Below, piece by piece: positions 31,550-52,700 of a DNA stretch of 64,000 nucleotides. A program made the translations under genes and the position numbers. Every line of letters starts with the position of its first letter. Position 1 is the first letter of the stretch. Source of the DNA: Escherichia coli (GTDB lineage: Bacteria; Pseudomonadota; Gammaproteobacteria; Enterobacterales; Enterobacteriaceae); NCBI RefSeq assembly GCF_030013205.1, contig NZ_CP122648.1, one strand, 5' to 3'. Below the pieces are notes generated by a model, which saw only the letters and a program-made list of their open reading frames with translations, made no database searches and had not been told where the DNA came from.

Positions 31550-31975
31550 ATCGCACGTCTCTTCTCCTTGCGACACCGGCAGGACACCGGGCGCACATGG
31601 TCGGCAAGCGACGTCCCTGTAGCAAGGCAAACCATCGCTTCACGTGAGATGCTGAAAACGAAAGCTCATCCTTCTGCACTGGCGCACGTCGCCAGAAAGT
31701 AATGTTAATAAAGCGTAGTGAAACTTTTGCACAAAACAATACAAACTGTGTGGATTTATCTTTTAGCGATAAAAATGGACCTATTTTTCTTTTTGCCGGG
31801 CGGTGGGGATGTTTAGCCAGTTGCTAAACGAGTAAAAGAGAAGGAATTCATGGTGATGAAATGATCAATCTGCTGTTATTTCACGCTATCAATGCACTTT
31901 TGGCTGTTTTTCAGGCAAACAAACAAATTAGGGGTTTACACGCCGCATCGGGATGTTTATAGTGCGCGTCATTCC

Positions 31976-32063
31976 GGAAGTGTGGCCGAGCGGTTGAAGG
32001 CACCGGTCTTGAAAACCGGCGACCCGAAAGGGTTCCAGAGTTCGAATCTCTGCGCTTCCGCCA
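31976..32063 (+). tRNA. serT: tRNA-Ser (anticodon UGA)
   Basis: GGAAGTGTGGCCGAGCGGTTGAAGGCACCGGTCTTGAAAACCGG...CGCTTCCGCCA, long variable arm, CCA encoded; 3' half lies in prophage att core. Confidence 0.95.
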
Positions 32064-32071
32064 AATAATCA
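32004..32071. repeat. Prophage att core copy, serT 3' half (attL)
   Basis: 68-bp identical to 52435-52502. Confidence 0.85.
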
Positions 32072-32105
32072 AGGGGTTACCAAATGGTAACCCCTTTGCT
32101 TTTTG
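32072..32105 (+). terminator. Intrinsic terminator after serT, supplied by prophage-side DNA
   Basis: Stem AGGGGTTACC / GGTAACCCCT followed by T-run. Confidence 0.7.
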
Positions 32106-32107
32106 GG

Positions 32108-32140
32108 CTCTTGGTATAAACTTGGTATACCAATTGGTAT
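32108..32140. promoter_or_regulatory. Three direct repeats TTGGTATA, candidate integrase arm-type sites
   Basis: CTTGGTATAAACTTGGTATACCAATTGGTATA next to attL; the same octamer recurs near attR at about 52321. Confidence 0.4.
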
Positions 32141-32326
32141 ATTTTCTGCCAAAAAATTCCTAAAATCCCCTCCAGCACAAACAATCACTTGCTCATTCAT
32201 ACTTTATCAAGAAAATATCCTTGCAAGTTATGTTGTTTCTTTCTGCGTCCCGACAGGGTGTCATGGTTCCCCACTTCTCTCGGGATGGACACTTAACGGA
32301 CGAGAAATTTTCAGGTGTCATTCAGA

Positions 32327-32365
32327 CGCGCTTCGGCCCCGGATTGGCGAAGCGCGCTTTTTTTC
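32327..32365 (+). terminator. Strong intrinsic terminator inside prophage end
   Basis: Stem CGCGCTTCG(GCC) / (GGC)CGAAGCGCG followed by TTTTTTT. Confidence 0.6.
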
Positions 32366-32511
32366 TCAGATTATTTCGTTTTGCCTGAGTGTTGAATAAC
32401 GCCACTACAGTTATATAAGCTGGAAATCATTCAATACTCGCACTATCGAAAGTTCACCAGCCAACCGCAGCACGTACTGCATACGTCGTGTCTGCGGTTT
32501 TTCTTTTTCAC

Positions 32512-32878
32512 TTACATTGTGTCTGGTTCTTCCGGCCACACAATATCCGGTGCTACTGATGTATCAACACGGTTCAGCAACACCCGATACTTTTTCCAGG
32601 CTTCCAGCAACGAGTTTTCTTCCTCCGTTGCGATCTCCAGATCTACAGCATCCTGAAGTGGCGCAATATGCTCACTGGCTACCTGCATCAGGCTGTTTTT
32701 TGTTTCTTCCGCCTCCCGGATCCGGAACAGTTTTTCTGCTTCTGCATCTTTCACCCAGGCTGTGCCGTTCCACTTCTGAAACTCCCCTTCCGGCGATAAC
32801 CAGGTAACATTTTCCGGTAACGGACCGAGTTCAGAAATAAATAACGCGTCCCCTGACGCTACGTCATAAACCGTTTTG
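32512..32878 (-). pseudogene. Tail fibre assembly protein (Tfa) C-terminal remnant
   Basis: ...[57 protein letters not shown]...[18 protein letters not shown] matches recalled Tfa family; N-terminus missing, fused at a deletion to stf remnant. Confidence 0.75.
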
Positions 32879-33710
32879 CAGATTTGTCAAAAGTCTGCCC
32901 CTGCATCAGGGCATAACCAGACGGAACGGTATTTGATGGCCACGGGATTGGTGCACCGACTGGGTAGCTTTCTGGTGGAAGATTTTTCGAGGTATAAACT
33001 TCTGCCCAGTCTTCCTCAAAACCATAACCGTCTCTTGAAGAACGGTAGAACAGACCACCATTTCTGTAATGCGCCTTCATCTGCAGGGTCCGGCAACTTC
33101 CGACTCCGGTATAGAAGTTAACCAGAATATAGCTGTTGCCTGTCCGGGTGACATTGTATGCACCAGATTTAGCATTCCACGGAACGCCTCCCTCTGACTC
33201 TGCGTGCACACCAGACGATCCAAGAGCAAAAGCAGAGACATCTGCAGCGGACAGCCTGATGTCTGATTTCAATGCCTTACCATTCACCTTACGACCAGAT
33301 GGAACCCGGTCATTTGCATTATCATTCACCGCTTTCACCGCCATTGGTGTTGCCGCCAGCGATTCACTGTCACTGTCCGTGGCACTGCTGAGCTGTACCA
33401 CCCCCTTTCTCGTCGTGCTCGCATCCTCTAGCGCCACGGCAGATGCAATATCCTCTGCCCGTTTTGCTGCTGTCTCGGCACGCGTTGCTGCAGATTCCGA
33501 CGTACTTTTGCTCTGAGCTGCCGCTGTCGCACTACCAGCTGCCTCTGTCGCCTTCGTGGATGCCGTCGTGGCACTGACCTTCGCCTCTGACGCCTGTCTT
33601 ACCGCCTCATCTTTTGAAGCAGACGCCGATGATGCTGATGACGCCGCCGAACTGGCGGACGATGCGGCTGCCGTTTCTGAGGCTCCTGCGCGGGTTGCCA
33701 CTTCCGTCAA
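32859..33710 (-). pseudogene. Side tail fibre (Stf) remnant
   Basis: Ala/Ser-rich repeat region then ...[16 protein letters not shown], after which the frame diverges into the tfa remnant. Confidence 0.65.
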
Positions 33711-34582
33711 CCAGGCTTATCAGCGTGGTGCCGGAGGATGGCAGCGTGATTTCACGGTCGAGCGTCAGCGTCCGGGTCTGGCTGTTCACCGCCAGCACGC
33801 GCCCGCCGGTGCTGATACCGGCATAGTCATCATCGCAGATTTCAATGACATCGCCCGGTACATGGCGAAGCCCTTCGGCACCCACGCTGAAGTCCACGGT
33901 CTGCGTTTCCAGCAGTTCTGTTTTAATCAGCCACAGCCCGGCGCGGTGCGCCTGCCCCCGGCTGGTACAGCCAAACGCATCCATCTTCGTGACGTTACGA
34001 CCGTAACGGGCAATGGCCTGCGAGTCCTCCACAAGCTCTGTCGCCGTCTCCTGGCCGTTATCCGGGTCAATCCAGTTCACTTCAACGGCATTATGGCGGT
34101 CTTTCAGGGCGCTGAAGCTGTAGCGGAATGGTGCGCCATCATCCGGCATCACCACATTACTGCGGTTATAGGTCCACACCTTATCCGACGGTCGGTCCTG
34201 CACGAACGTCAGCGTCTGCCCGTTCCATACCGGCATACAGCGCATCGCCGAGCAGAAATCACTGAGCACATCCCAGGCCTTGCGCTGTGTGGTCAGGTAC
34301 GCATTACAGGCGATGCGCGGCTCCGTGCCGCCAAAGCCGTCCGGCACCGACTGGTCGCAGTACTGGCCGATGACATACAGCGCCCATTTGTCCACATCCG
34401 CCGCACCAAGACGTTTCACTGTCCAGCACCGGCGTACTGTTCAGCAGCACGCTTTTTAATCCCTCCACCGGACCTTCTATCGGCCCTTCGCTGATGGCAT
34501 CAATCACACTCAGCAACTGCGTGGATTTCAGATTGTCCTTCGCTTCTCGCGGGGTATGCCCCTTACTGCTGCCTTTACCCAT
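33607..34582 (-). pseudogene. Lambda J-like tail tip protein remnant, frameshifted and internally deleted
   Basis: N-terminal ORF MGKGSSKGHTPREAKDNLKSTQLLSVIDAISEGPIEGPVEGLKSVLLNST as recalled for lambda J, then a second overlapping frame; about 330 aa in total versus over 1100 aa for intact J. Confidence 0.7.
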
Positions 34583-34642
34583 TCGTCATGCTCCATAAAC
34601 GACAAAACCGCCCGCAGGCGGTTTCACATAAAACATGTTGTA

Positions 34643-35140
34643 TCAGCGACCAATCACCACAACCTGACCACCATCCCCTTCGTCTGCCGTGCTGATCTCC
34701 TGAGAAACCACCCGCGACCCCACGCGCATTTCACCGTACAGAACGGGCAGAACATTGCCCTGGGCAACCATGTTATCCAGTGAGGAGAAATACGTATTCT
34801 GTTTGCCGTTATCCGTTGTCTGTGTACGGGGGGTTCTGGGTTTAGGGGCCAGCATCTGTGCAACACCGCCAAGCGTCATACTGGCACCGAGAGAAAACAG
34901 CAGATTGCTCGCCATAATTCCTACCCCCGGCATCCATATAGCAACCGCCATAACAGCAGCGCCCAGCACAGCCTGAAACACTCCGCCACTTTTAGCCCCA
35001 GCCAGACGCGGCACGATGTGGATCACGGCACCATTCGCCAGCGGTTCATTAAGACGGGCTGATAATTCTGTTTCACCGGCATCATGCCCGGCAATGCGTA
35101 CCTGATACCAGCGATGCGATATCCTGCTGGTGGATGAATG
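34643..35140 (-). pseudogene. Lambda I-like tail assembly protein, N-terminally truncated
   Basis: ...WYQVRIAG...GAVIHIVPRLAGAKSGGVFQAVLGAA...EISTADEGDGGQVVVIGR matches recalled gpI C-terminal two-thirds; in-frame stop upstream near 35150. Confidence 0.7.
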
Positions 35141-35447
35141 AGAGAATCTTCACCGACACCACCGATACCAGTACCGCACAAAGCGCGTCGAGAGATGTGC
35201 TGTGGAGATTCAATTTTTCGACCAGCCAGGACGCAAGGACATCCGCCCCCAGCACGCCAACAATGAACGACACCAGAAAATGCGCCGCCACACGCCAGAC
35301 AGAAATCACCTGTGGCATCGTGGCCACAAACAACGCCCCGGCAAACGCGCCAAACACAATCCCGAAATCCGTCCCGGTAAACAGCCCGAATACCGTCGCC
35401 CCGCCGAGCGCCACAGCAGTGCTGGAACCGGATAAGGGTTCAGACAT
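35082..35447 (-). CDS. Hypothetical multi-TM membrane protein (holin-like), 3' end overlapping I remnant
   Basis: MSEPLSGSSTAVALGGATVFGLFTG... three to four hydrophobic segments; no recognisable K motifs. Confidence 0.35.
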   Translation of the reverse strand: MSEPLSGSSTAVALGGATVFGLFTGTDFGIVFGAFAGALFVATMPQVISVWRVAAHFLVSFIVGVLGADVLASWLVEKLNLHSTSLDALCAVLVSVVSVKILSFIHQQDIASLVSGTHCRA

Positions 35448-35646
35448 ATTTATTCTCCTGTAAATAAAAAGGACCATCAGCGGCCCCGTAACTGACATTT
35501 TATTAACGTTTGAAGATATGGATATTTATCAGGGTTTACCGTTTTCTGAACCCTGGATATGTTAAGCATTCAGCCGGCCAGTGGTGGGACGCTGGCTCAT
35601 CATAGAGAAAGAGGGATGGCTGATTACCTCTGATCAGGGAAATCAC

Positions 35647-35916
35647 ATGCAGTTTTTACATAAAAGAATGCATTTAAATGCAGGAGATACGGTAGTGGTT
35701 GACTGCTCTCATCAGTGCAATATTTTGCTGATGACAGATACAAACTTTAATAACTACCGCAACGCAAGAAGCTTTCATCATCACGGTGGTGGCGGTTTTT
35801 TTCAGAGATTACCGGCCCACCTTCATGTACCGCATTCAGGTTACTGGAATATTACAATTGATTTAGGAGGCGGAAGTGCAGCTATTCGGCACTCCATTTC
35901 CGTCATCCCAGCATAG
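35647..35916 (+). CDS. Hypothetical protein
   Basis: MQFLHKRMHLNAGDTVVVDCSHQCN...HHHGGGG...; ORF followed by hairpin at about 35952-35983. Confidence 0.4.
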   Translation: MQFLHKRMHLNAGDTVVVDCSHQCNILLMTDTNFNNYRNARSFHHHGGGGFFQRLPAHLHVPHSGYWNITIDLGGGSAAIRHSISVIPA

Positions 35917-36227
35917 CAACTCGCCTTTAGCCTGAGTAAATGCGTCCTCAAGGACGGCAACGAGTCGCAGTTGCGTGCCGTCCTTTACACAGCGTGTGCA
36001 GGCAATACCTTCAGAACTTTCATTATGCCGAGCTCATACAATTTCACCATTTTGTTCAACTACAACGCTCATAATTTTCTTACACTTTTTTAATAAACCA
36101 CACCAATAACAACCATCACCGATACCTTTTGTATGCTGTTATTTTGCATTACGGTGTAACGGCAAGAGCCCCCTCCCCGCCCTGAAAGGCTCTGTGTTTT
36201 TGATGTGCGCCTGATGTGGCTCAGATA

Positions 36228-36251
36228 CAAAAAAGCTCGCAGTAGCGAGCT
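36228..36251 (-). terminator. Intrinsic terminator for the 36275-36553 gene
   Basis: Stem AGCTCGC / GCGAGCT with A-run on plus strand (T-run on minus) just below the stop. Confidence 0.6.
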
Positions 36252-36274
36252 AACAGAAAATATGAAGCATGTTT

Positions 36275-45702: not shown

Positions 45703-45736
45703 TAAAATTTCCTCCCGGTAAAAATTACTTCTCAAC

Positions 45737-46402
45737 TCAAACAAAACCAGCCGCTTTCCGGCGTTCATATTCCTGTTTCAGCAACTCAATTGGCGTTGGT
45801 CCCGACGGGTGTTTGGGTGCCGCCAGTTGTCGCCGGACTGGCGGAATGCTCAGGCCATTACCAACATGCTTTGCCCATTTCGTCAGTTGCCATTCTGCAA
45901 GCCGTTTTAACTCCCCTTCGGTCATCTGGCGCTCAATCCCCTTTGAACGCATCTCGAGGCAAATGTGATACAGCACAGGCTGAGACCACGGGTACTTATC
46001 ACTTCCGTCGTATCGCCAGGACTCATTGCGCCAGCGGCGGTACTCCTCCATCACAGCATCCACCGTCAGACCAAATGGATTGGCTCCGCTTTCCGAAATC
46101 AGCGCCACAAACTCAGCCAGGTCCGGAGGCCATGTTTCACCCGCCCGGCAGCGGTCCATGCACTGGCGGCAGACCTGCCGGATTTGCTGCTCAGTCATCG
46201 CGCCAATCTGTGCAATCCAGAGCTTCGAAGGTGCGGCCCCGTTCTTCTGGGTCCAGCGGTTCGAATAAACCTCCCCCATGAGTTCCCACAGCTTCCAGGC
46301 CGTTTCCGTCGCTGATAAATCCGTTTTCACGTTCCCACTGCTCACGTGCTGCCCGAATTTCCTGAACTGCTCGTGATGCGGTGCCACCTGGTGCTGCTGC
46401 AT
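45737..46402 (-). CDS. Lambda P-like replication protein (helicase loader)
   Basis: C-terminal half resembles recalled lambda P (DKYPWSQPVLYHICLEM..., ...ELLKQEYERRKAAG); N-terminal extent uncertain because the ORF overlaps the upstream gene. Confidence 0.5.
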   Translation of the reverse strand: MQQHQVAPHHEQFRKFGQHVSSGNVKTDLSATETAWKLWELMGEVYSNRWTQKNGAAPSKLWIAQIGAMTEQQIRQVCRQCMDRCRAGETWPPDLAEFVALISESGANPFGLTVDAVMEEYRRWRNESWRYDGSDKYPWSQPVLYHICLEMRSKGIERQMTEGELKRLAEWQLTKWAKHVGNGLSIPPVRRQLAAPKHPSGPTPIELLKQEYERRKAAGFV

Positions 46403-46652
46403 GGTTTACCCCCTTGCTGACTGGTTTAACCTGCGCCCTGACGTGATTTACGTGACGGGCGAATTTCTGCTCCCACTGAATCTGCGTGAACACTTTCCCC
46501 TCCGCTGCCCAGTAGTCCCGGAAGGCTGCAAATTCAGCTGGTGTAAATTCCGGCTCAGGCAGAGCCACTCCCCACAGAGCAGCCCGTCGTCGAAAATCCG
46601 GCGACGGATGCCAGCCATCGGTCATCGGAAATTTCCCGATGGGTTCGCTCAT
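46191..46652 (-). CDS. DnaT-domain-like replication protein, apparently N-terminally truncated
   Basis: KFPMTDGWHPSPDFRRRAALWGVALPEP...; starts with this segment directly and overlaps the P-like ORF in another frame. Confidence 0.45.
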   Translation of the reverse strand: MSEPIGKFPMTDGWHPSPDFRRRAALWGVALPEPEFTPAEFAAFRDYWAAEGKVFTQIQWEQKFARHVNHVRAQVKPVSKGVNHAAAPGGTASRAVQEIRAAREQWERENGFISDGNGLEAVGTHGGGLFEPLDPEERGRTFEALDCTDWRDD

Positions 46653-46691
46653 GCCGTCCAGATAAGCGAAGCAGCACCGCGAGGAATCAGT

Positions 46692-46910
46692 ATGCAGAAA
46701 CGAGAACCCGTCATCATCGCGCCAGACTATACCGATGATGAACTTTATGAGTGGATGCGCCAGAAAATTAATGCAGCGCAGGATCTGAAATGGGCCAATG
46801 AAGCCAGGGCTAAGCAGGCTGAAAATCTGTCCGCTCTGGAGCAGGATATCACCAGGCTGGAAAAAGCAGCGGCATTAAGCATTGCCAGAATGATTTCATA
46901 CCCGCGTTAA
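46692..46910 (+). CDS. Hypothetical small protein
   Basis: 72 aa ORF MQKREPVIIAPDYTDDELYEWMRQ... with GAGGAA RBS 6 nt upstream; opposite strand to the replication genes. Confidence 0.4.
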   Translation: MQKREPVIIAPDYTDDELYEWMRQKINAAQDLKWANEARAKQAENLSALEQDITRLEKAAALSIARMISYPR

Positions 46911-47045
46911 TAGCTAACCAACGAAGCTAAGGTTGGTAATTAAGGAGTTCTCCACGGGTCAGGTGGAGTGCGTGCGCCGGACACGGGTGAGCATCCGGTA
47001 CGTTCTTTAAAAATCTGGATAGTCCCAACTTATTTAAACGGTTAA

Positions 47046-47606
47046 TTATCTTGAGTTCATCCAGAACTTATTATTGCAAGCGGGGCAAAAAGTACGAAAA
47101 TGAGCATCAAAGCGCATTATTTCCATTGGCTGAAGTACAGATATTACCTTTTTTCCAAAACATTGTGGGCAAAGATACACAGTTATCTCAGTATCGCCTA
47201 TAAATTGCTTCTTGGAATATACAAGGGTTCCAGAATCAAGCTTGTTAAGCTTGTAACCTTCCGCCTGTCGCTGAAAATCTTCTGTCTCTGCAATTTTTGC
47301 TTTGAGATGCATTATCTCTTCATCACGAAAGCGGATCGCATCGCAAAGAGAGAAGCATTCCGCCTGAAGCGTGATTAGTTTGTTCTGAAGTTCAATAGTT
47401 GCGGCTTTAACTTCTGCATCCGTTTTTGCGTCATTAATAACCTTAGCGAGACCAGCTGTCTCCTTTATCGCAGCCATAGCCGCTGACAGTTCTGCTATCA
47501 CGTTGAGTACTCTTCTCGTTGTTGGGGATATCCGGATTATACAAATTTCTTGTTGTTGGGGAATAACAGGAACCACCTCGCCTGACGTGGTTAAAAGCAG
47601 GCACAC
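47046..47606 (-). CDS. Coiled-coil protein with C-terminal zinc ribbon
   Basis: ...DAEVKAATIELQNKLITLQAEC... then CPQC-x26-CPAC; likely start at MAAIKETAGL (47478); no helix-turn-helix evident. Confidence 0.5.
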   Translation of the reverse strand: MCLLLTTSGEVVPVIPQQQEICIIRISPTTRRVLNVIAELSAAMAAIKETAGLAKVINDAKTDAEVKAATIELQNKLITLQAECFSLCDAIRFRDEEIMHLKAKIAETEDFQRQAEGYKLNKLDSGTLVYSKKQFIGDTEITVYLCPQCFGKKVISVLQPMEIMRFDAHFRTFCPACNNKFWMNSR

Positions 47607-47692
47607 AACGCGAAAGCGTACGGCGAGGTAGCTGGTTCATAGATAGCCTGTCGTTAAATTTTCGTCGACCGTGCACTTCCGGTTGTGGCAAT

Positions 47693-47863
47693 CCGCGAAA
47701 TGGCGCGGCGGTAAGTATGGCTGGGTTATCCTTACCCCATTAGTGGCACCGGGTTGTCAGGTTGACCATACGCTTAAGTGACAACCCCGCTGCAACAACC
47801 CATGTTGATTACCTTTTGGCGGGTATCCGTTTTTTGTTTTCCCTTGTGATACCCGCCCTTTTT
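47693..47863 (+). ncRNA. Candidate structured RNA or leader: four consecutive hairpins ending in an intrinsic terminator
   Basis: Hairpins at 47693-47708, 47710-47736, 47750-47789, then terminator 47818-47863 (GGCGGGTATC...GATACCCGCC + CTTTTT). Confidence 0.35.
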
Positions 47864-47868
47864 AAAGT

Positions 47869-48028
47869 GAATTTTGTGATGCGGTGAATGCGGCTCAGCG
47901 CACGCGGAACAGTTAAAAAGGCCAGTTGACTTCCGTATTGGTTCTTATGGGTGGGTTCTCTGTATCCGGCGTTAATTATTAACTGGTTAACGTCACCTGG
48001 AGGCACCAGGCACCGCATCACAAAATTC
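47869..48028. promoter_or_regulatory. 18-bp perfect inverted repeat arms flanking 124 bp, upstream of the plus-strand early genes
   Basis: GAATTTTGTGATGCGGTG at 47869-47886 and exact reverse complement CACCGCATCACAAAATTC at 48011-48028. Confidence 0.5.
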
Positions 48029-48046
48029 ATTGTTGAGGATGCGATA

Positions 48047-48229
48047 ATGGAAACGTTATTACCAAACGTCAATACGTCTGAAGGTTGTTTTGAAATTGGT
48101 GTCAGAATCAGTAACCCTGTATTTACTGAAGATGCCATTAATAAGAGAAAACACGAACGGGAGCTATTAAATCAAATATGCATTGTTTCAATGCTGGCCC
48201 GTTTACGCCTGATGCAAAAAGGACGATGA
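48047..48229 (+). CDS. Hypothetical small protein, first gene after the inverted repeat
   Basis: METLLPNVNTSEGCFEIGVRISNPVF...; RBS GAGGA upstream. Confidence 0.35.
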   Translation: METLLPNVNTSEGCFEIGVRISNPVFTEDAINKRKHERELLNQICIVSMLARLRLMQKGR

Positions 48230-48435
48230 CAATGAATACAGTATTTGCACTCGTTCTGACGGTTTTTCTTAATACAGGCGAGCCAGTCGATCTTGTTATT
48301 GGTATACATGACTCAATGAAAGAATGCATGGCTGCCGCAGCGGAACAGAAAATTCCCGGCAACTGTTATCCGGTTGATAAAGTTATTCGCATGGACAATA
48401 ACGAAATCCCGGCAGGACTTAAAACAGCACCGTAA
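48226..48435 (+). CDS. Hypothetical small protein with hydrophobic N-terminus
   Basis: MTMNTVFALVLTVFLNTGEPVDLVIG...; RBS AAGGA. Confidence 0.4.
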   Translation: MTMNTVFALVLTVFLNTGEPVDLVIGIHDSMKECMAAAAEQKIPGNCYPVDKVIRMDNNEIPAGLKTAP

Positions 48436-48515
48436 TTAATATCCGGTTTCATTTTTATATGCCAGCAATGGCAGGGATTTGTTCACCCTTAAATCTGTAA
48501 TGAGGTTAAAACAAA

Positions 48516-48740
48516 ATGAGTAAAGTCTTTATTTGCGCCGCCATTCCGGACGAACAGGCAATAAAGGAAGAAGGTGCAGTCGCTGTAGCCACTGCCATTG
48601 AAGCCGGCGACGAACGCCGCGCCCGAGCCAAATTTACCTGGCAATTCCTGGAGCAATATCCGGCTGCTCAGGACTGCGCTTATAAATTTCTTGTTTGCGA
48701 GGATAAACCCGGCATGCCCCGCCCTGCCATCGACTCCTAG
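48516..48740 (+). CDS. Hypothetical prophage protein
   Basis: 74 aa ORF MSKVFICAAIPDEQAIKEEG... Confidence 0.4.
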   Translation: MSKVFICAAIPDEQAIKEEGAVAVATAIEAGDERRARAKFTWQFLEQYPAAQDCAYKFLVCEDKPGMPRPAIDS

Positions 48741-48752
48741 GATACCGAATAT

Positions 48753-50987
48753 ATGCAGGAAAACTGCTGGGATGAGGAATCCGCTTCCTTTATTCCGGTC
48801 GAACCAGAATCCGATCCGATGAACGTCAATTTTGACAAGCTGTCCCCTGAAGTACAGAACGCGGTCCTGGTTAAGTTCGACACATGTGAAAACATCACCG
48901 TTGATATGGTTATTAGCGCACAGGAATTGTTGCAGGAAGACATGGCAACATTCGACGGACATATCGTTGAAGCGTTGATGAAAATGCCAGAAGTTAACGC
49001 CATGTATCCGGAGCTTAAGTTGCACGCCATTGGGTGGGTTAAGCATAAATGTATTCCTGGTGCTAAATGGCCCGAAATTCAGGCAGAGATGCGCATCTGG
49101 AAAAAACGTCGCGAAGGTGAACGCAAGGAAACCGGAAAATACACGTCTGTTGTTGATCTCGCCCGCGCCAGAGCCAATCAACAGTACACTGACAATTCAA
49201 CAGGAAAAATCAGCCCGGTCATTGCTGCCACTCATCGCGAATACAAGCAGACATGGAAAACACTGGATGACGAACTGGCCTACGCTCTCTGGCCTGGTGA
49301 TGTGGATGCCGGAAACATTGACGGCAGCATCCATCGCTGGGCAAAAAATGAAGTTATCGACAACGACCGCGAAGACTGGAAGCGTATCTCGGCATCAATG
49401 CGCAAACAGCCTGATGCCCTTCGCTACGACCGCCAGACTATTTTTGGCCTTGTCCGTGAACGTCCGATCGACATTCACAAAGACCCTGTGGCACTGAACA
49501 AATACATTACTGAATACCTGACTACAAAGGGCGTGTTTGAAGATGAAGGAAGAAATCAGAGCGCAACTGATACTCTCTCGTCGCCAGTACCAGAAACTGA
49601 TGCAGTGGAAACGGCAATTCCGGACAACGAAAAAACCGAATGCAAAGTGGAAGTCGAACCATCTGTAGAGCGTGAGGGGCCGTTCTACTTCCTCTTCACC
49701 GACAAGGATGGCGAAAAATATGGTCGCGCAAACAAACTTTCTGGTCTGAATAAGGCGCTGACTGCAGGGGCTACTGAAATCACGAAAGAAGAATATTTTG
49801 CCCGTAAAAACGGTACATACTCAGGTTCACAACAAAATACTGGTGCATCTGACACGACCGCACAACCAGAGCCGGTAAAAGTTACCGCTGACGAAGTAAA
49901 CAAAATTATGCAGGCAGCCAATATCAGCCAGCCTGACGCCGATAAGTTGCTTGCTGTATCACGTGGTGAATTTGTTGCAGGGATTAGCGACCCGAATGAT
50001 CCGAAATGGGTGAAGGGGATTGAAACCCGCGATTCAGTGAATCAGAACCAGCAAGAAACGGAACAGAACGACCAGAAAGCGGAACAAAACAGCCCAAATG
50101 CGTTACAAAACGAGCCAGAAACGAAACAACCTGAGCCAGTAGCGCAACAGGAAGCGGAAAAAGTCTGCACCGCCTGCGGTCAGACCGGCGGCGGCAACTG
50201 CCCTGATTGTGGTGCGGTGATGGGCGACGCAACATACCAAGAAACATTCGATGACAAGAACCAGGTTGAAGTTCAGGAAGACGATTCGGAGAAAATGGAA
50301 GGCGCTGAACATCCACACAAAGAGAATGCTGGCAGCGCTCAGGATCACGCCAGCGATAGTGAAACTGGCGAGACGGCAGATCCCTTAATTACGGTGAACG
50401 GTCATCACGTTATCACATCCACCAGCAGGACGTGTGACCATCTAATGATCGACCTTGAAACCATGGGAAAAAATCCTGATGCCCCGATTATCTCAATAGG
50501 TGCAATATTTTTCGATCCGCAAACCGGAGATATGGGACCGGAATTTAGTAAGACTATCGATCTGGAAACTGCTGGCGGAGTCATTGATCGGGACACCATT
50601 AAATGGTGGCTTAAGCAATCACGCGAAGCGCAATCTGCCATTATGACCGATGAAATCCCGTTAGATGATGCACTGTTACAATTGCGGGAATTTATCGACG
50701 AAAACTCCGGTGAATTTTTTGTTCAGGTCTGGGGAAATGGAGCCAACTTCGACAACACGATTTTGCGCCGTTCATACGAACGGCAGGGGATCCCCTGCCC
50801 GTGGCGTTACTACAACGATCGCGATGTACGCACAATCGTTGAGCTGGGGAAAGCCATAGACTTCGATGCCAGAACGGCTATTCCATTCGAAGGTGAGCGC
50901 CATAATGCACTTGATGACGCCCGTTACCAGGCAAAATACGTTTCAGCAATCTGGCAAAAACTGATCCCGAATCCGGTTGATTTTTAA
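48753..50987 (+). CDS. Prophage exonuclease with C-terminal DEDDh 3'-5' exonuclease domain
   Basis: C-terminus MIDLETMG...ISIGAIFF...WGNGANFD...HNALDDARYQAKY; long acidic Gln/Glu-rich linker and CTACGQTGGGNCPDCG zinc-ribbon-like segment upstream. Confidence 0.7.
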   Translation: MQENCWDEESASFIPVEPESDPMNVNFDKLSPEVQNAVLVKFDTCENITVDMVISAQELLQEDMATFDGHIVEALMKMPEVNAMYPELKLHAIGWVKHKCIPGAKWPEIQAEMRIWKKRREGERKETGKYTSVVDLARARANQQYTDNSTGKISPVIAATHREYKQTWKTLDDELAYALWPGDVDAGNIDGSIHRWAKNEVIDNDREDWKRISASMRKQPDALRYDRQTIFGLVRERPIDIHKDPVALNKYITEYLTTKGVFEDEGRNQSATDTLSSPVPETDAVETAIPDNEKTECKVEVEPSVEREGPFYFLFTDKDGEKYGRANKLSGLNKALTAGATEITKEEYFARKNGTYSGSQQNTGASDTTAQPEPVKVTADEVNKIMQAANISQPDADKLLAVSRGEFVAGISDPNDPKWVKGIETRDSVNQNQQETEQNDQKAEQNSPNALQNEPETKQPEPVAQQEAEKVCTACGQTGGGNCPDCGAVMGDATYQETFDDKNQVEVQEDDSEKMEGAEHPHKENAGSAQDHASDSETGETADPLITVNGHHVITSTSRTCDHLMIDLETMGKNPDAPIISIGAIFFDPQTGDMGPEFSKTIDLETAGGVIDRDTIKWWLKQSREAQSAIMTDEIPLDDALLQLREFIDENSGEFFVQVWGNGANFDNTILRRSYERQGIPCPWRYYNDRDVRTIVELGKAIDFDARTAIPFEGERHNALDDARYQAKYVSAIWQKLIPNPVDF

Positions 50988-51053
50988 TGTTCAACCCTGA
51001 TCGCCGTCCCCGAATTATATTGGCGGCGGTCATGCTGTAAGGCACGTGACCAC

Positions 51054-51305
51054 ATGTACGAATTAACTCTATCGCCAGCAGAGATTCAAGAGATCACGAA
51101 ATACGAGCGATACACAAAACAGCAACACCAGTTAAGGCTGCACGGTATCCCATTTGTAATCGGTCCTAAAAACGAACCAATAGTTCTTCGCAGGGATATT
51201 CCACACGGACTGACTACGATGCCAAAAGCACCTGAACTGGTTTCCGCTGAACCCGATTTTGAGGCGCTGAACAATGGGAAGACCAAGAAAAAACAAAAAA
51301 GATAA
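51054..51305 (+). CDS. Putative excisionase
   Basis: 83 aa ORF immediately upstream of and overlapping the integrase; call is positional. Confidence 0.45.
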   Translation: MYELTLSPAEIQEITKYERYTKQQHQLRLHGIPFVIGPKNEPIVLRRDIPHGLTTMPKAPELVSAEPDFEALNNGKTKKKQKR

Positions 51306-52293
51306 TGCACTACCACCGCGTGTTAGATCGAATGGTTACAGTTACGTATGGAAACCCGAAGGAAGCACAAGAACTATAGGGCTCGGAAGAGTGCGGGAAA
51401 CCAGCGTAGCTAAAGTCTGGCAAAATTATGAGCTGGAAAAAGCAAAACTCCACAACATAATGACAGTAGCTAAATTATGGCACATGTTTATGGACTCCCC
51501 TGCATTTACAGAACTGGCCCCCCGAACCCAAAAAGATTATCGGCAACATCAAAGGGCATTGTTGGCAGTATTCGGAAAAGTGCTTGCTGATAATGTAAAA
51601 ATTGAACAGGTAAGAATTTTCATGGATAAGCGAGGACTTGAGAGCAAGACCCAAGCAAACCATGAACTGGCAAGTCTGAGCCGTGTATACGGATGGGGAT
51701 ATGAGCGTGGGTATGTGAAAAATAATCCATGCAAAGGAGTCAGAAAATTCACACTTAAAGCCCGTACTGTTTACATCACCGATGAACAGTATGCTGCAAT
51801 ATATGCGGAAGCAATTCCACAGTTACGTATTGCAATGGAGATATCCTATCTTTGTGCGGCAAGGCTCGGTGATGTACTCGAGCTGAAATGGCAGGATATT
51901 ATGGAGAAAGGGATTTACATTGAGCAAAACAAGACCGGCACTAAACAAATCAAGGAATGGTCTCCGCGATTACGTACGGCGATCCAGTTAGCCCGAAATG
52001 TATCTTCCGGCACATGCGAGTATGTGATCAACACAACCAAAGGCGGGAAGGTAATAGCCAAGACGCTGAACAACTGGTGGAATCAGGCTAAACGTGCAGC
52101 CGAGCAAAAAGCCGGCGTTCCGTTTGGGTGCAACTTCCATGACATAAAAGCCAAAGGGATTTCACATTACGAAGGCAGCAGTCGCGACAAACAAATTTTC
52201 AGTGGACACAAAACAGAAAATCAGGTGTTGATTTACGATCGTAAAACCAAAATAACACCAACACTGGATTTGCCGCTTGTGGTCAGTAAGTAG
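51274..52293 (+). CDS. int: Phage tyrosine integrase
   Basis: 339 aa ORF 140 bp from the att core; C-terminal region with candidate catalytic residues (ARLGDVLELKWQDI; HDIKAKGISHYEG...LIYDR). Confidence 0.8.
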   Translation: MGRPRKNKKDNALPPRVRSNGYSYVWKPEGSTRTIGLGRVRETSVAKVWQNYELEKAKLHNIMTVAKLWHMFMDSPAFTELAPRTQKDYRQHQRALLAVFGKVLADNVKIEQVRIFMDKRGLESKTQANHELASLSRVYGWGYERGYVKNNPCKGVRKFTLKARTVYITDEQYAAIYAEAIPQLRIAMEISYLCAARLGDVLELKWQDIMEKGIYIEQNKTGTKQIKEWSPRLRTAIQLARNVSSGTCEYVINTTKGGKVIAKTLNNWWNQAKRAAEQKAGVPFGCNFHDIKAKGISHYEGSSRDKQIFSGHKTENQVLIYDRKTKITPTLDLPLVVSK

Positions 52294-52434
52294 GCAATAC
52301 AGAAAATTTTCTGGCAAAAAGACTTGGTATATTAACTCTGAATAACTCCCTAATATATTGATTTTTCTTGGTGTCAAGTCTGATTAACTTTTCGGATATT
52401 TTCCGTATTATACTGATTTTTCTTTATTTTTCTT

Positions 52435-52502
52435 CGGTCTTGAAAACCGGCGACCCGAAAGGGTTCCAGAGTTCGAATCTCTGCGCTTCCGCCAAATAAG
52501 AT
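52435..52502. repeat. Prophage att core copy (attR), partial serT 3' half
   Basis: 68-bp identical to 32004-32071, followed by a hairpin terminator AGGGGTTAG...CTAACCCCT + T-run. Confidence 0.85.
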
Positions 52503-52700
52503 AAGGGGTTAGCTAACTGCTAACCCCTTTTTCTTTTGCCTGTCGAAATTCTCAGGGCGTTATATTTGCTTAATGACCTGATAATCCGCTGTTAAACCTG
52601 TTCCAGATCAAATGCGTAAAGATGGGTAAAACTTCTGGGTGCCCTTACGCATTATCATTATGCTGCTTAATTAATTACATCTGTCATAGAGAGTGACTCA

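Follow-up and report, generated by a model that had tools for sequence, protein, structure and literature searches.

A defective lambdoid prophage in serT of Escherichia coli, probably the remnant of an Evi/CP-933M-type phage that decayed in place

In a 64,000-nt stretch of the Escherichia coli chromosome (contig NZ_CP122648.1; hereafter the window, in which all coordinates are positions), the tRNA-Ser(UGA) gene serT and the gene yccA are separated by phage DNA that lies between two perfect copies of a 65-nt direct repeat. This element is very probably the remnant of a lambdoid phage of the Evi/CP-933M type that integrated in serT and afterwards decayed where it stood. It is termed defective since the features of a functional phage, namely the virion genes and the repressor with its early regulatory region, are absent. 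A preliminary description of the same DNA had also recognized a defective lambdoid prophage in serT, and the present analysis brought to light neither overlooked head or terminase genes nor a different origin for the flanking repeats. E. coli strains commonly carry defective lambdoid prophages and serT is a reported prophage site, so that both the kind of element and its location were already known and its interest beyond annotation is low; at the same site the prophage also occurs in near-intact form and in forms that decayed differently, which allows its exact decay history to be read.

Insertion at serT and replacement of its terminator

The only tRNA gene in the window is serT, which was located by ARAGORN and is also matched by the Rfam tRNA model. 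The final 60 nt of this gene, beginning in the anticodon stem, together with the 5 nt that follow its 3' end, make up the 65-nt repeat, the two copies of which are spaced by 20,431 bp from start to start. Beyond the exact repeat, an imperfect similarity extends across a terminator hairpin, to give a total of about 103 nt at 91% identity. In E. coli K-12 MG1655 serT directly adjoins yccA, as stated in the preliminary description, and the 20,431 bp are absent. A three-way alignment of the K-12 attB site with the two junctions in the window describes a simple insertion, with bacterial DNA up to and through the repeat at the left junction and bacterial DNA again from the repeat onwards at the right. 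Over the aligned region, the serT restored at attL does not differ from that of K-12, and the tRNA gene is intact; the earlier proposal that direct repeats regenerate the 3' part of the gene therefore stands, with the exact length corrected from 68 bp to 65 nt.

The sequence that follows serT at attL is not that of the bacterial chromosome. It forms the hairpin GGGGTTACC-AAAT-GGTAACCCC followed by a T-tract, and is 98.6% identical to the P' side of the attP site of phage Evi (see below). The native serT terminator, GGGGTTAGC...GCTAACCCC, is found at 52503-52529, on the far side of the element, and the phage mimic differs from it by a compensatory C/G swap in the stem. The phage attP carries the 3' part of serT together with this look-alike of its terminator, and the phage therefore replaces both on integration. 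After integration, serT is predicted to be terminated by phage DNA, with the native terminator left behind upstream of yccA. Because the block of identity begins in the anticodon stem, the Int crossover would be placed in or near the serT anticodon loop. A crossover at the anticodon loop is the pattern described for tRNA-targeting integrases.

The integrase and the attP site of a free phage

The gene beside attR encodes a tyrosine integrase (Int) that aligns over its full length with lambda Int structures and matches the Pfam family PF00589. Among 50,697 phage records searched by tblastn, there was one near-identical Int (99.1%, or three substitutions), that of Escherichia phage Evi (LR597642.1), a temperate 40-kb coliphage isolated from infant faecal samples (PMC10910852). 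In the Evi genome, the exact 65-nt core is found at 31617-31681, 142 nt past the end of int, and is followed by the same terminator mimic, which therefore identifies this site as attP and agrees with the previous interpretation of the flanking repeats as an att duplication. Over the exo-xis-int block, Evi and the element share 92.5% DNA identity.

Just upstream of int, and overlapping it (51054-51305 versus 51274-52293), lies an open reading frame (ORF) for a small DUF4224 protein, homologues of which are annotated as excisionase in the same position in the phages ST64B (Sb29), mEp390 and ZF40; it is presumed to be the excisionase (Xis) of the element. A sequence search of the PDB with this protein gave no informative match, and a literature search on DUF4224 found no experimental work, the papers that mention the family appearing to be genome surveys. 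From these sequence comparisons, every defining feature that was examined of a prophage integrated at a tRNA gene by a tyrosine integrase appears to be present, and there is good support for an Int-driven insertion at the serT core.

Two large deletions account for the missing genes

Comparison with intact relatives, which the preliminary description had called for, maps two large deletions in the element, of 17.2 kb and 2.56 kb. The enterotoxigenic E. coli (ETEC) strain E21845/O/A (NZ_CP076272.1) carries a near-intact prophage of 44,123 bp at the same serT site and with the same 65-nt cores, which is 98.9-99.6% identical to the element over the DNA that they share and which possesses holins, a GH108 endolysin, both the small and the large terminase subunit, a portal, a protease-capsid fusion and a full set of tail genes. 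Relative to this prophage (blastn), 17.2 kb is lost from the element between gene I and the first holin gene (deletion A, Table 1). The missing segment comprises K, L, M, H, T, G, V, U, Z, the head, portal and terminase genes, the GH108 endolysin and the second holin, as well as the region between genes next to the terminase where cos would be expected. Two intact relatives supplied 27 tblastn queries from their late, lysis and immunity genes, among them RacR, YdaS and YdaT, the terminase subunits, portal, capsid and protease, endolysins and Rz, and the tail tube, tape measure and M/L/K proteins. In the 64-kb window these matched only the fragments of I, J and the first holin, which bears out the earlier report of an element with no terminase, capsid or endolysin.

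The second deletion (deletion B, Table 1) is evident from comparison with the pig strain ETEC1738, which has a matching early region, an identical P protein and an intact DnaT-like gene of 339 aa. In the element, the 5' half of the DnaT-like gene is missing together with ydaT, ydaS, racR, DUF1391 and ydfB. By analogy with the gene layout of lambda and Rac, the intergenic regions within the deleted segment would have held the divergent early promoters and operators. A crude consensus scan of the + strand from 46500 to 51433, upstream of ydfC-dicB-exo-xis and of the int start, detected no sigma-70-like site, and the nearest consensus match on that strand lies inside int itself, at 51434. Judged by the genes that it has lost, the remnant should be unable to form particles, to lyse the cell or to replicate from its own origin.

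Point lesions and the order of decay

In addition to the deletions, the element bears several small lesions. The large exonuclease gene contains a TGG to TAG change at codon 75 (W75*; 48738-48740), which is the sole difference from the ETEC1738 protein and which leaves an ORF of 744 codons from 48753. In Int, the codon at 52165-52167 specifies histidine at position 298 (D298H), a substitution shared by the other carriers of the remnant that were checked (W13-16 and ETEC4068). The residue at this position is aspartate in all eight homologues of a nine-sequence alignment that extends down to 42% identity, namely the proteins of Evi, E21845, ETEC1738 and O157:H7 and five more distant homologues. 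The residues Arg 197, Lys 220, His 289, Lys 292, His 312 and Tyr 321, which we read, by analogy with lambda Int, as the catalytic set of Int, are invariant in the alignment and present here. Both of these mutations, like the immunity-region loss caused by the 2.56-kb deletion and the removal of the last 18 codons of the holin gene, had been missed in the preliminary description.

The relative timing of the lesions is provided by strain ETEC4068, which contains the same remnant and the same Int variant together with an intact exonuclease gene; the deletions and D298H therefore preceded W75*. Other strains hold alternative products of decay at the same site. A 26-kb version of the serT prophage in ETEC1706 keeps the lysis cassette, frameshifted terminase and portal fragments, and racR, and ETEC1738 has P2-like tail genes and a His-Xaa-Ser (HxsABCD) radical-SAM cluster in place of the late region. 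By their sequences, these two versions appear to represent independent decay paths of the same prophage.

These observations are consistent with a history in which the Int of a temperate phage of the Evi/CP-933M type would have recombined an attP site, made up of the last 60 nt of serT and a substitute terminator, with the chromosomal serT, leaving a functional gene at attL and a partial copy at attR. A microhomology-mediated deletion of 17.2 kb would then have stripped the prophage of its lysis, packaging, head and most of its tail genes, smaller deletions would have fragmented J and the tail fibres, and a microhomology-mediated deletion of 2.56 kb would have taken the racR-ydaS-ydaT switch, the expected early promoters and half of the replication-initiator gene. 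Point mutations would have followed, first in the form of the membrane-protein stop and Int D298H, and most recently as exonuclease W75*. The end state would be an element that produces no particles, does not lyse the cell or replicate autonomously, is probably not self-excising, and is inherited vertically in a pig-associated lineage.

Nothing contradicts the identification itself, although four points weigh against parts of this account. The proposed loss of the early promoters derives from the analogy in layout, to which the crude consensus scan adds the sole support, and the effect of D298H on Int is likewise conjectural, with all of the aligned catalytic residues intact. As the att cores are identical, excision may take place through Int and Xis supplied in trans. 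Finally, the tail region is only 88-96% identical to that of E21845, which indicates descent from a mosaic variant, not from the E21845 phage itself.

Gene content from attL to attR

The gene map of the element (Table 1) follows the PGAP annotation of a near-identical record, that of the O139:H1 strain W13-16 (99.95% identity), which agrees with Pfam and PHROG scans. The surviving genes are in lambdoid order and collinear with the prophage of E21845/O/A and with Evi. All of the genes listed in the preliminary description (int, xis, a large exonuclease, P, a DnaT-like gene, RusA, Q and tail remnants) were recovered, with the qualification that the exonuclease and DnaT-like genes are damaged. 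Gene J has lost the part that encodes the C-terminal 600 aa, as well as aa 57-288. The interval between the methyltransferase gene and Q contains two hypothetical genes that are small or broken, one of them the membrane-protein pseudogene. No partner nuclease was found by PADLOC for the DNA methyltransferase, and no DicF small RNA was detected upstream of dicB (47600-48050) by Rfam at E<=0.1. PDB searches with three of the hypothetical proteins gave no match or matches at the level of chance only.

Two Rfam matches fall within the element. The tail-fibre assembly remnant contains a strong match to 'IS009' (32555-32753, - strand; 223 bits versus a gathering score of 117), which is probably conserved prophage sequence, not a separate RNA gene. 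A match to STnc100 (47870-48024) is below threshold (33.5 bits versus a gathering score of 47) and was treated as due to chance.

Table 1. Features of the serT element and its boundaries, in order of position in the window.
Feature	Position	Strand	Evidence
serT, tRNA-Ser(UGA), intact	31976..32063	+	ARAGORN, Rfam, K-12 identity; 3' 60 nt within attL core
attL core, 65-nt perfect repeat starting in serT anticodon stem	32004..32068		Repeat search; also in Evi beside int
Phage-supplied replacement serT terminator, 11-bp hairpin and T-tract	32071..32106	+	attB/attL/attR alignment; terminator scan
Tail-fibre assembly gene remnant, N-terminus gone	32512..32877	-	PGAP pseudogene in W13-16; phrog_105
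Internal fragment of tail-fibre gene	32877..33689	-	PGAP partial CDS; tail-fibre PHROGs
Host-specificity gene J, two fragments (aa 289-530 and aa 1-56 of 1131)	33691..34582	-	tblastn with E21845 J; blastn maps
Tail assembly gene I, C-terminal fragment (aa 54-215)	34643..35125	-	tblastn; PGAP partial CDS
Deletion A junction, 9-bp microhomology GATACCAGC (at both parental positions)	35104..35112		blastn versus 44-kb relative; junction sequences
Holin (Phage_holin_8), last 18 codons lost at deletion junction	35115..35447	-	Pfam; tblastn, aa 1-111 of 129
DUF1883 gene, cargo position downstream of Q	35647..35916	+	PGAP; PDB 2b1y homologue (function not known)
Hypothetical gene	36275..36553	-	phrog_2873
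Orphan N6/N4 DNA methyltransferase	37072..38157	-	Pfam PF01555; PADLOC MTase_II
Hypothetical membrane-protein pseudogene, internal stop	38679..39392	-	PGAP; intact in ETEC1738 and E21845
Antiterminator Q, full length	39648..40319	-	Pfam PF06323, E 1e-89
RusA Holliday-junction resolvase	40310..40669	-	PGAP
DUF968/YdfU-like HNH protein	40682..41731	-	PGAP; phrog_96
ParD-ParE type II toxin-antitoxin pair, opposite strand to neighbours	42141..42703	+	PGAP; identical proteins in intact relative
nin-like block: hypothetical, HNH endonuclease, DUF4014, two hypotheticals, DUF977, DUF1627	42902..45702	-	PGAP, Pfam, PHROGs
Replication protein P homologue	45737..46198	-	Pfam PF06992; PGAP
DnaT-like replisome organiser, C-terminal part; N-terminal half deleted	46191..46664	-	Pfam DnaT; intact 339-aa gene in ETEC1738
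Deletion B junction, 2,561 bp, 4-bp microhomology GATA	46661..46664		blastn versus ETEC1738; junction sequences
ydfC	46692..46910	+	PGAP; phrog_1744
Rip1-like gene, 151 aa, coiled coil and zinc ribbon, candidate anti-phage gene	47046..47501	-	phmmer versus PDB 9oox; phrog_1244
dicB (cell-division inhibitor) and DUF1482 gene	48047..48435	+	PGAP
Large exonuclease gene, 823 codons, nonsense at codon 75	48516..50987	+	Translation; ETEC1738 protein; phrog_2082 matched from position 80
DUF4224 protein, presumed excisionase	51054..51305	+	Pfam PF13986; phrog_1266 'excisionase'; identical to E21845 protein
Tyrosine integrase, 339 aa, full length, D298H	51274..52293	+	Pfam PF00589; Evi Int; 9-sequence alignment; lambda Int structures
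attR core, second 65-nt copy (partial serT)	52435..52499		Repeat search
Native serT terminator, parted from serT, upstream of yccA	52503..52539	+	attB/attL/attR alignment

Occurrence of serT prophages

A 365-nt probe across the empty site finds the serT-yccA junction unbroken in 4,664 of 5,426 complete E. coli genomes, and the int-xis module is present in 749 of the same genomes, a number that accounts for nearly all of the approximately 760 interrupted sites. The 20-kb structure described here is found at 100% coverage and 99.9-100% identity in 17 complete genomes from several accession series, and an assembly artefact was rejected on these grounds. The remnant very probably persists as an island, inherited vertically, within a lineage of E. 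coli associated with pigs. No description of this particular remnant was found in the literature searched; in RefSeq it is annotated gene by gene. The element in the best-matching public genomes differs in length from that in the window by 6-60 nt despite an identity of about 100%, which suggests a small indel or a difference in repeat number.

Prophages occupy the same site elsewhere. The prophage CP-933M of the O157:H7 strain EDL933 lies between yccK and tRNA-SerT (PMC5552260), yccK being the tusE of the genomes compared here, and serT is also given as a prophage site in O121:H19 (PMC8767318), in E. albertii (PMC10673567) and in an stx2d strain (PMC13188871). In a further O157:H7 strain, 86-24, a homologous dicB-DUF1482-exo-xis-int block with 92% DNA identity abuts yccA. 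Strain RM13745 (NZ_CP044312.1) harbors a tandem pair of related lambdoid prophages at serT, separated by an attP that has not recombined (in the order int, core, tail fibres), an arrangement that suggests repeated natural use of the serT att site.

Comparison with known phages and prophages

The free phage Evi resembles the element in its Int, in the attP core and terminator mimic that follow int directly, and in its lambdoid gene order. It differs in being a complete 40-kb phage with terminase, an HK97-type head, tail and lysis genes and its own immunity region, in the aspartate at position 298 of its Int, and in much of its early and late regions, so that only 41% of the element is matched at the DNA level. 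The prophage of E21845/O/A has the same site, orientation and cargo (ParDE, methyltransferase, DUF1883, Rip1-like protein and dicB) in addition to its high shared identity. In contrast to the element, it retains the lysis, terminase, portal, capsid and tail genes and the racR-ydaS-ydaT region, and its replication initiator is a helix-turn-helix protein instead of the DnaT-like and P proteins, this being accompanied by the divergence of the tail region noted above. CP-933M of EDL933 and the serT prophage of other O157:H7 strains share the location between serT and yccA/tusE (PMC5552260), and the latter prophage also shares the dicB-DUF1482-exo-xis-int arrangement and an int-xis module that is about 92% identical in DNA sequence; however, these are different mosaics in a different host lineage, and CP-933M was compared by site only.

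Among the prophages of K-12, Rac and Qin (Kim) are likewise defective lambdoid remnants, and the element carries ydfC and dicB of the Qin type. Rac exemplifies the RacR/YdaS/YdaT-type switch that is used by the relatives of the element and deleted in the element itself. Both differ in their integration sites and integrases, and Qin possesses DicF. Salmonella phage ST64B and coliphage vB_EcoM-606R7 have Int proteins that are 50-55% identical to that of the element, with a DUF4224-type excisionase upstream, although their genomes and their tRNA-Ser target are different. In vB_EcoM-606R7 the int gene lies beside a tRNA-Ser(CGA) sequence, and the targeting of tRNA-Ser genes therefore recurs in this Int family.

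Cargo genes and the retention of the remnant

The gene between ydfC and dicB, which is unnamed in the annotation, encodes a protein that matches the recently solved PDB entry 9oox, 'ring interacting pore 1 (Rip1)', over 142 aa (phmmer, E 1.4e-12). Residues 5-146 align with residues 15-155 of the 164 in the 9oox chain, and both CxxC motifs are matched, so that the product of 47046-47501 is, by sequence, a full-length Rip1 homologue and a candidate defence protein. Rip1 is described in one paper as a structurally characterized prophage defence protein (PMC12908700), and according to a preprint it senses the small terminase subunit (bioRxiv 10.64898/2026.04.30.721860); in secondary mentions in these two sources, it is said to bind the small-terminase rings of an infecting phage and to block replication of that phage. 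Of ten cargo proteins and proteins without assigned roles, PADLOC recognized the methyltransferase alone, apart from a weak PtuB-like match to an HNH protein, and it missed the Rip1-like protein (PADLOC-DB 2023).

ParDE, the methyltransferase, the DUF1883 gene and the Rip1-like gene (WP_046788612.1) are all found in the near-intact prophage of E21845/O/A, and are therefore normal accessory genes of the phage, not later acquisitions. The retention of several cargo genes had been pointed out previously, and these four are indeed present, with the correction that they form part of the standard accessory complement. The genes most likely to be expressed still would be those that run opposite to the dead operons, namely ParDE, the Rip1-like gene and the DUF1883 gene, and possibly the methyltransferase.

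It is conceivable, if doubtful, that the remnant is kept by selection as a defence or addiction island formed by the Rip1-like gene, ParDE and the orphan methyltransferase, and not through a mere failure to excise. Such a proposal would accommodate the full-length homologue of a structurally characterized prophage defence protein (PMC12908700), a ParDE pair that is intact and set on the opposite strand to a dead operon, and cargo genes that are undisrupted while several of their neighbors are pseudogenes, and the Rip1-family gene in particular offers a testable reason for retention. However, the carriers are near-clonal at this locus (99.9-100%), so that intact ORFs convey no signal of purifying selection, the same genes occur in the intact relative and nothing has been gained, and PADLOC recognizes only the methyltransferase and a weak HNH match.

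Prospects for excision

The preliminary description had concluded from the missing capsid genes that the element is locked in place. Immobility is indeed likely, but the inference from capsid loss does not follow, because excision requires Int, Xis and the att sites and not the virion genes. It had also noted that int and xis look intact, which holds for the two ORFs, both full length, and for the xis-like protein, identical to that of E21845, but overlooks the D298H substitution in Int. If the remnant is immobile, the loss of the immunity and early regulatory region together with Int D298H are likelier reasons than the loss of the capsid, so that the regulatory deletion and the integrase substitution, and not the absence of capsid genes, are the lesions relevant to its immobilization. 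Because the remnant is unchanged in 17 complete genomes, self-excision is probably rare or absent. The int and xis genes are presumably silent.

The opposite view, that the remnant is still mobile and is excised and lost at a measurable frequency, through low-level Int and Xis or through their supply by a co-infecting Evi-type phage, is unlikely. In its favor, both ORFs are full length, the xis-like protein is unaltered with respect to the near-intact relative, all aligned catalytic residues of Int are present, the att cores are identical at 65 of 65 positions, and the attL and attR arms are 98.6-99.6% identical to those of E21845/O/A; the attL arm and Evi attP share 98.6% identity. Phages with the same Int are in circulation, and RM13745 demonstrates tandem integration at serT. 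Excision, or a tandem integration, may be driven by an incoming Evi-type phage. Against mobility stand the deletion of the immunity and promoter region upstream of the ydfC-dicB-exo-xis-int operon, the fact that no consensus-like promoter was detected upstream of xis or of the int start (the nearest match being that inside int, at 51434), the histidine at a position where eight homologues down to 42% identity have aspartate, and the unchanged retention of the remnant in the 17 genomes, which come from several projects.

A broader proposal, which is also rather improbable, combines these elements: the remnant would be kept in a widespread pig-associated lineage as a small defence and addiction island, while its att cores would leave it open to incoming Evi-type phages, which could insert next to it, bring about its excision in trans or recombine with it. 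If true, the remnant would provide a natural example of a Rip1-family gene that has outlived its phage.

A phage satellite (of the P4 type or of the type of the phage-inducible chromosomal islands), in which a compact island with int and xis depends on a helper for its particles and is not a decayed prophage, would agree with 20.4 kb of DNA in a tRNA gene with int and xis ORFs, perfect att cores and neither capsid nor terminase genes, but was rejected as extremely improbable, since the element is collinear with a full 44-kb prophage at 99% apart from two clean microhomology deletions, contains truncated J, I, tail-fibre, holin and DnaT-like pseudogenes, has lost the region where cos would be expected as well as the repressor, and shows, in its annotation by Pfam, PHROG or PGAP, none of the genes that mark a satellite (a primase-type replicase or a capsid-remodelling gene).

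The chromosomal flanks

Two further loci in the window that are known prophage sites, wrbA and torS/torT, are both empty. The flanking chromosome also contains three pseudogenes, all on the + strand: rutE (2012-2602), which has a stop at codon 89; rutG (3128-4456), with a stop at codon 233; and torS (16559-19302), which is 2,744 nt long and frameshifted.

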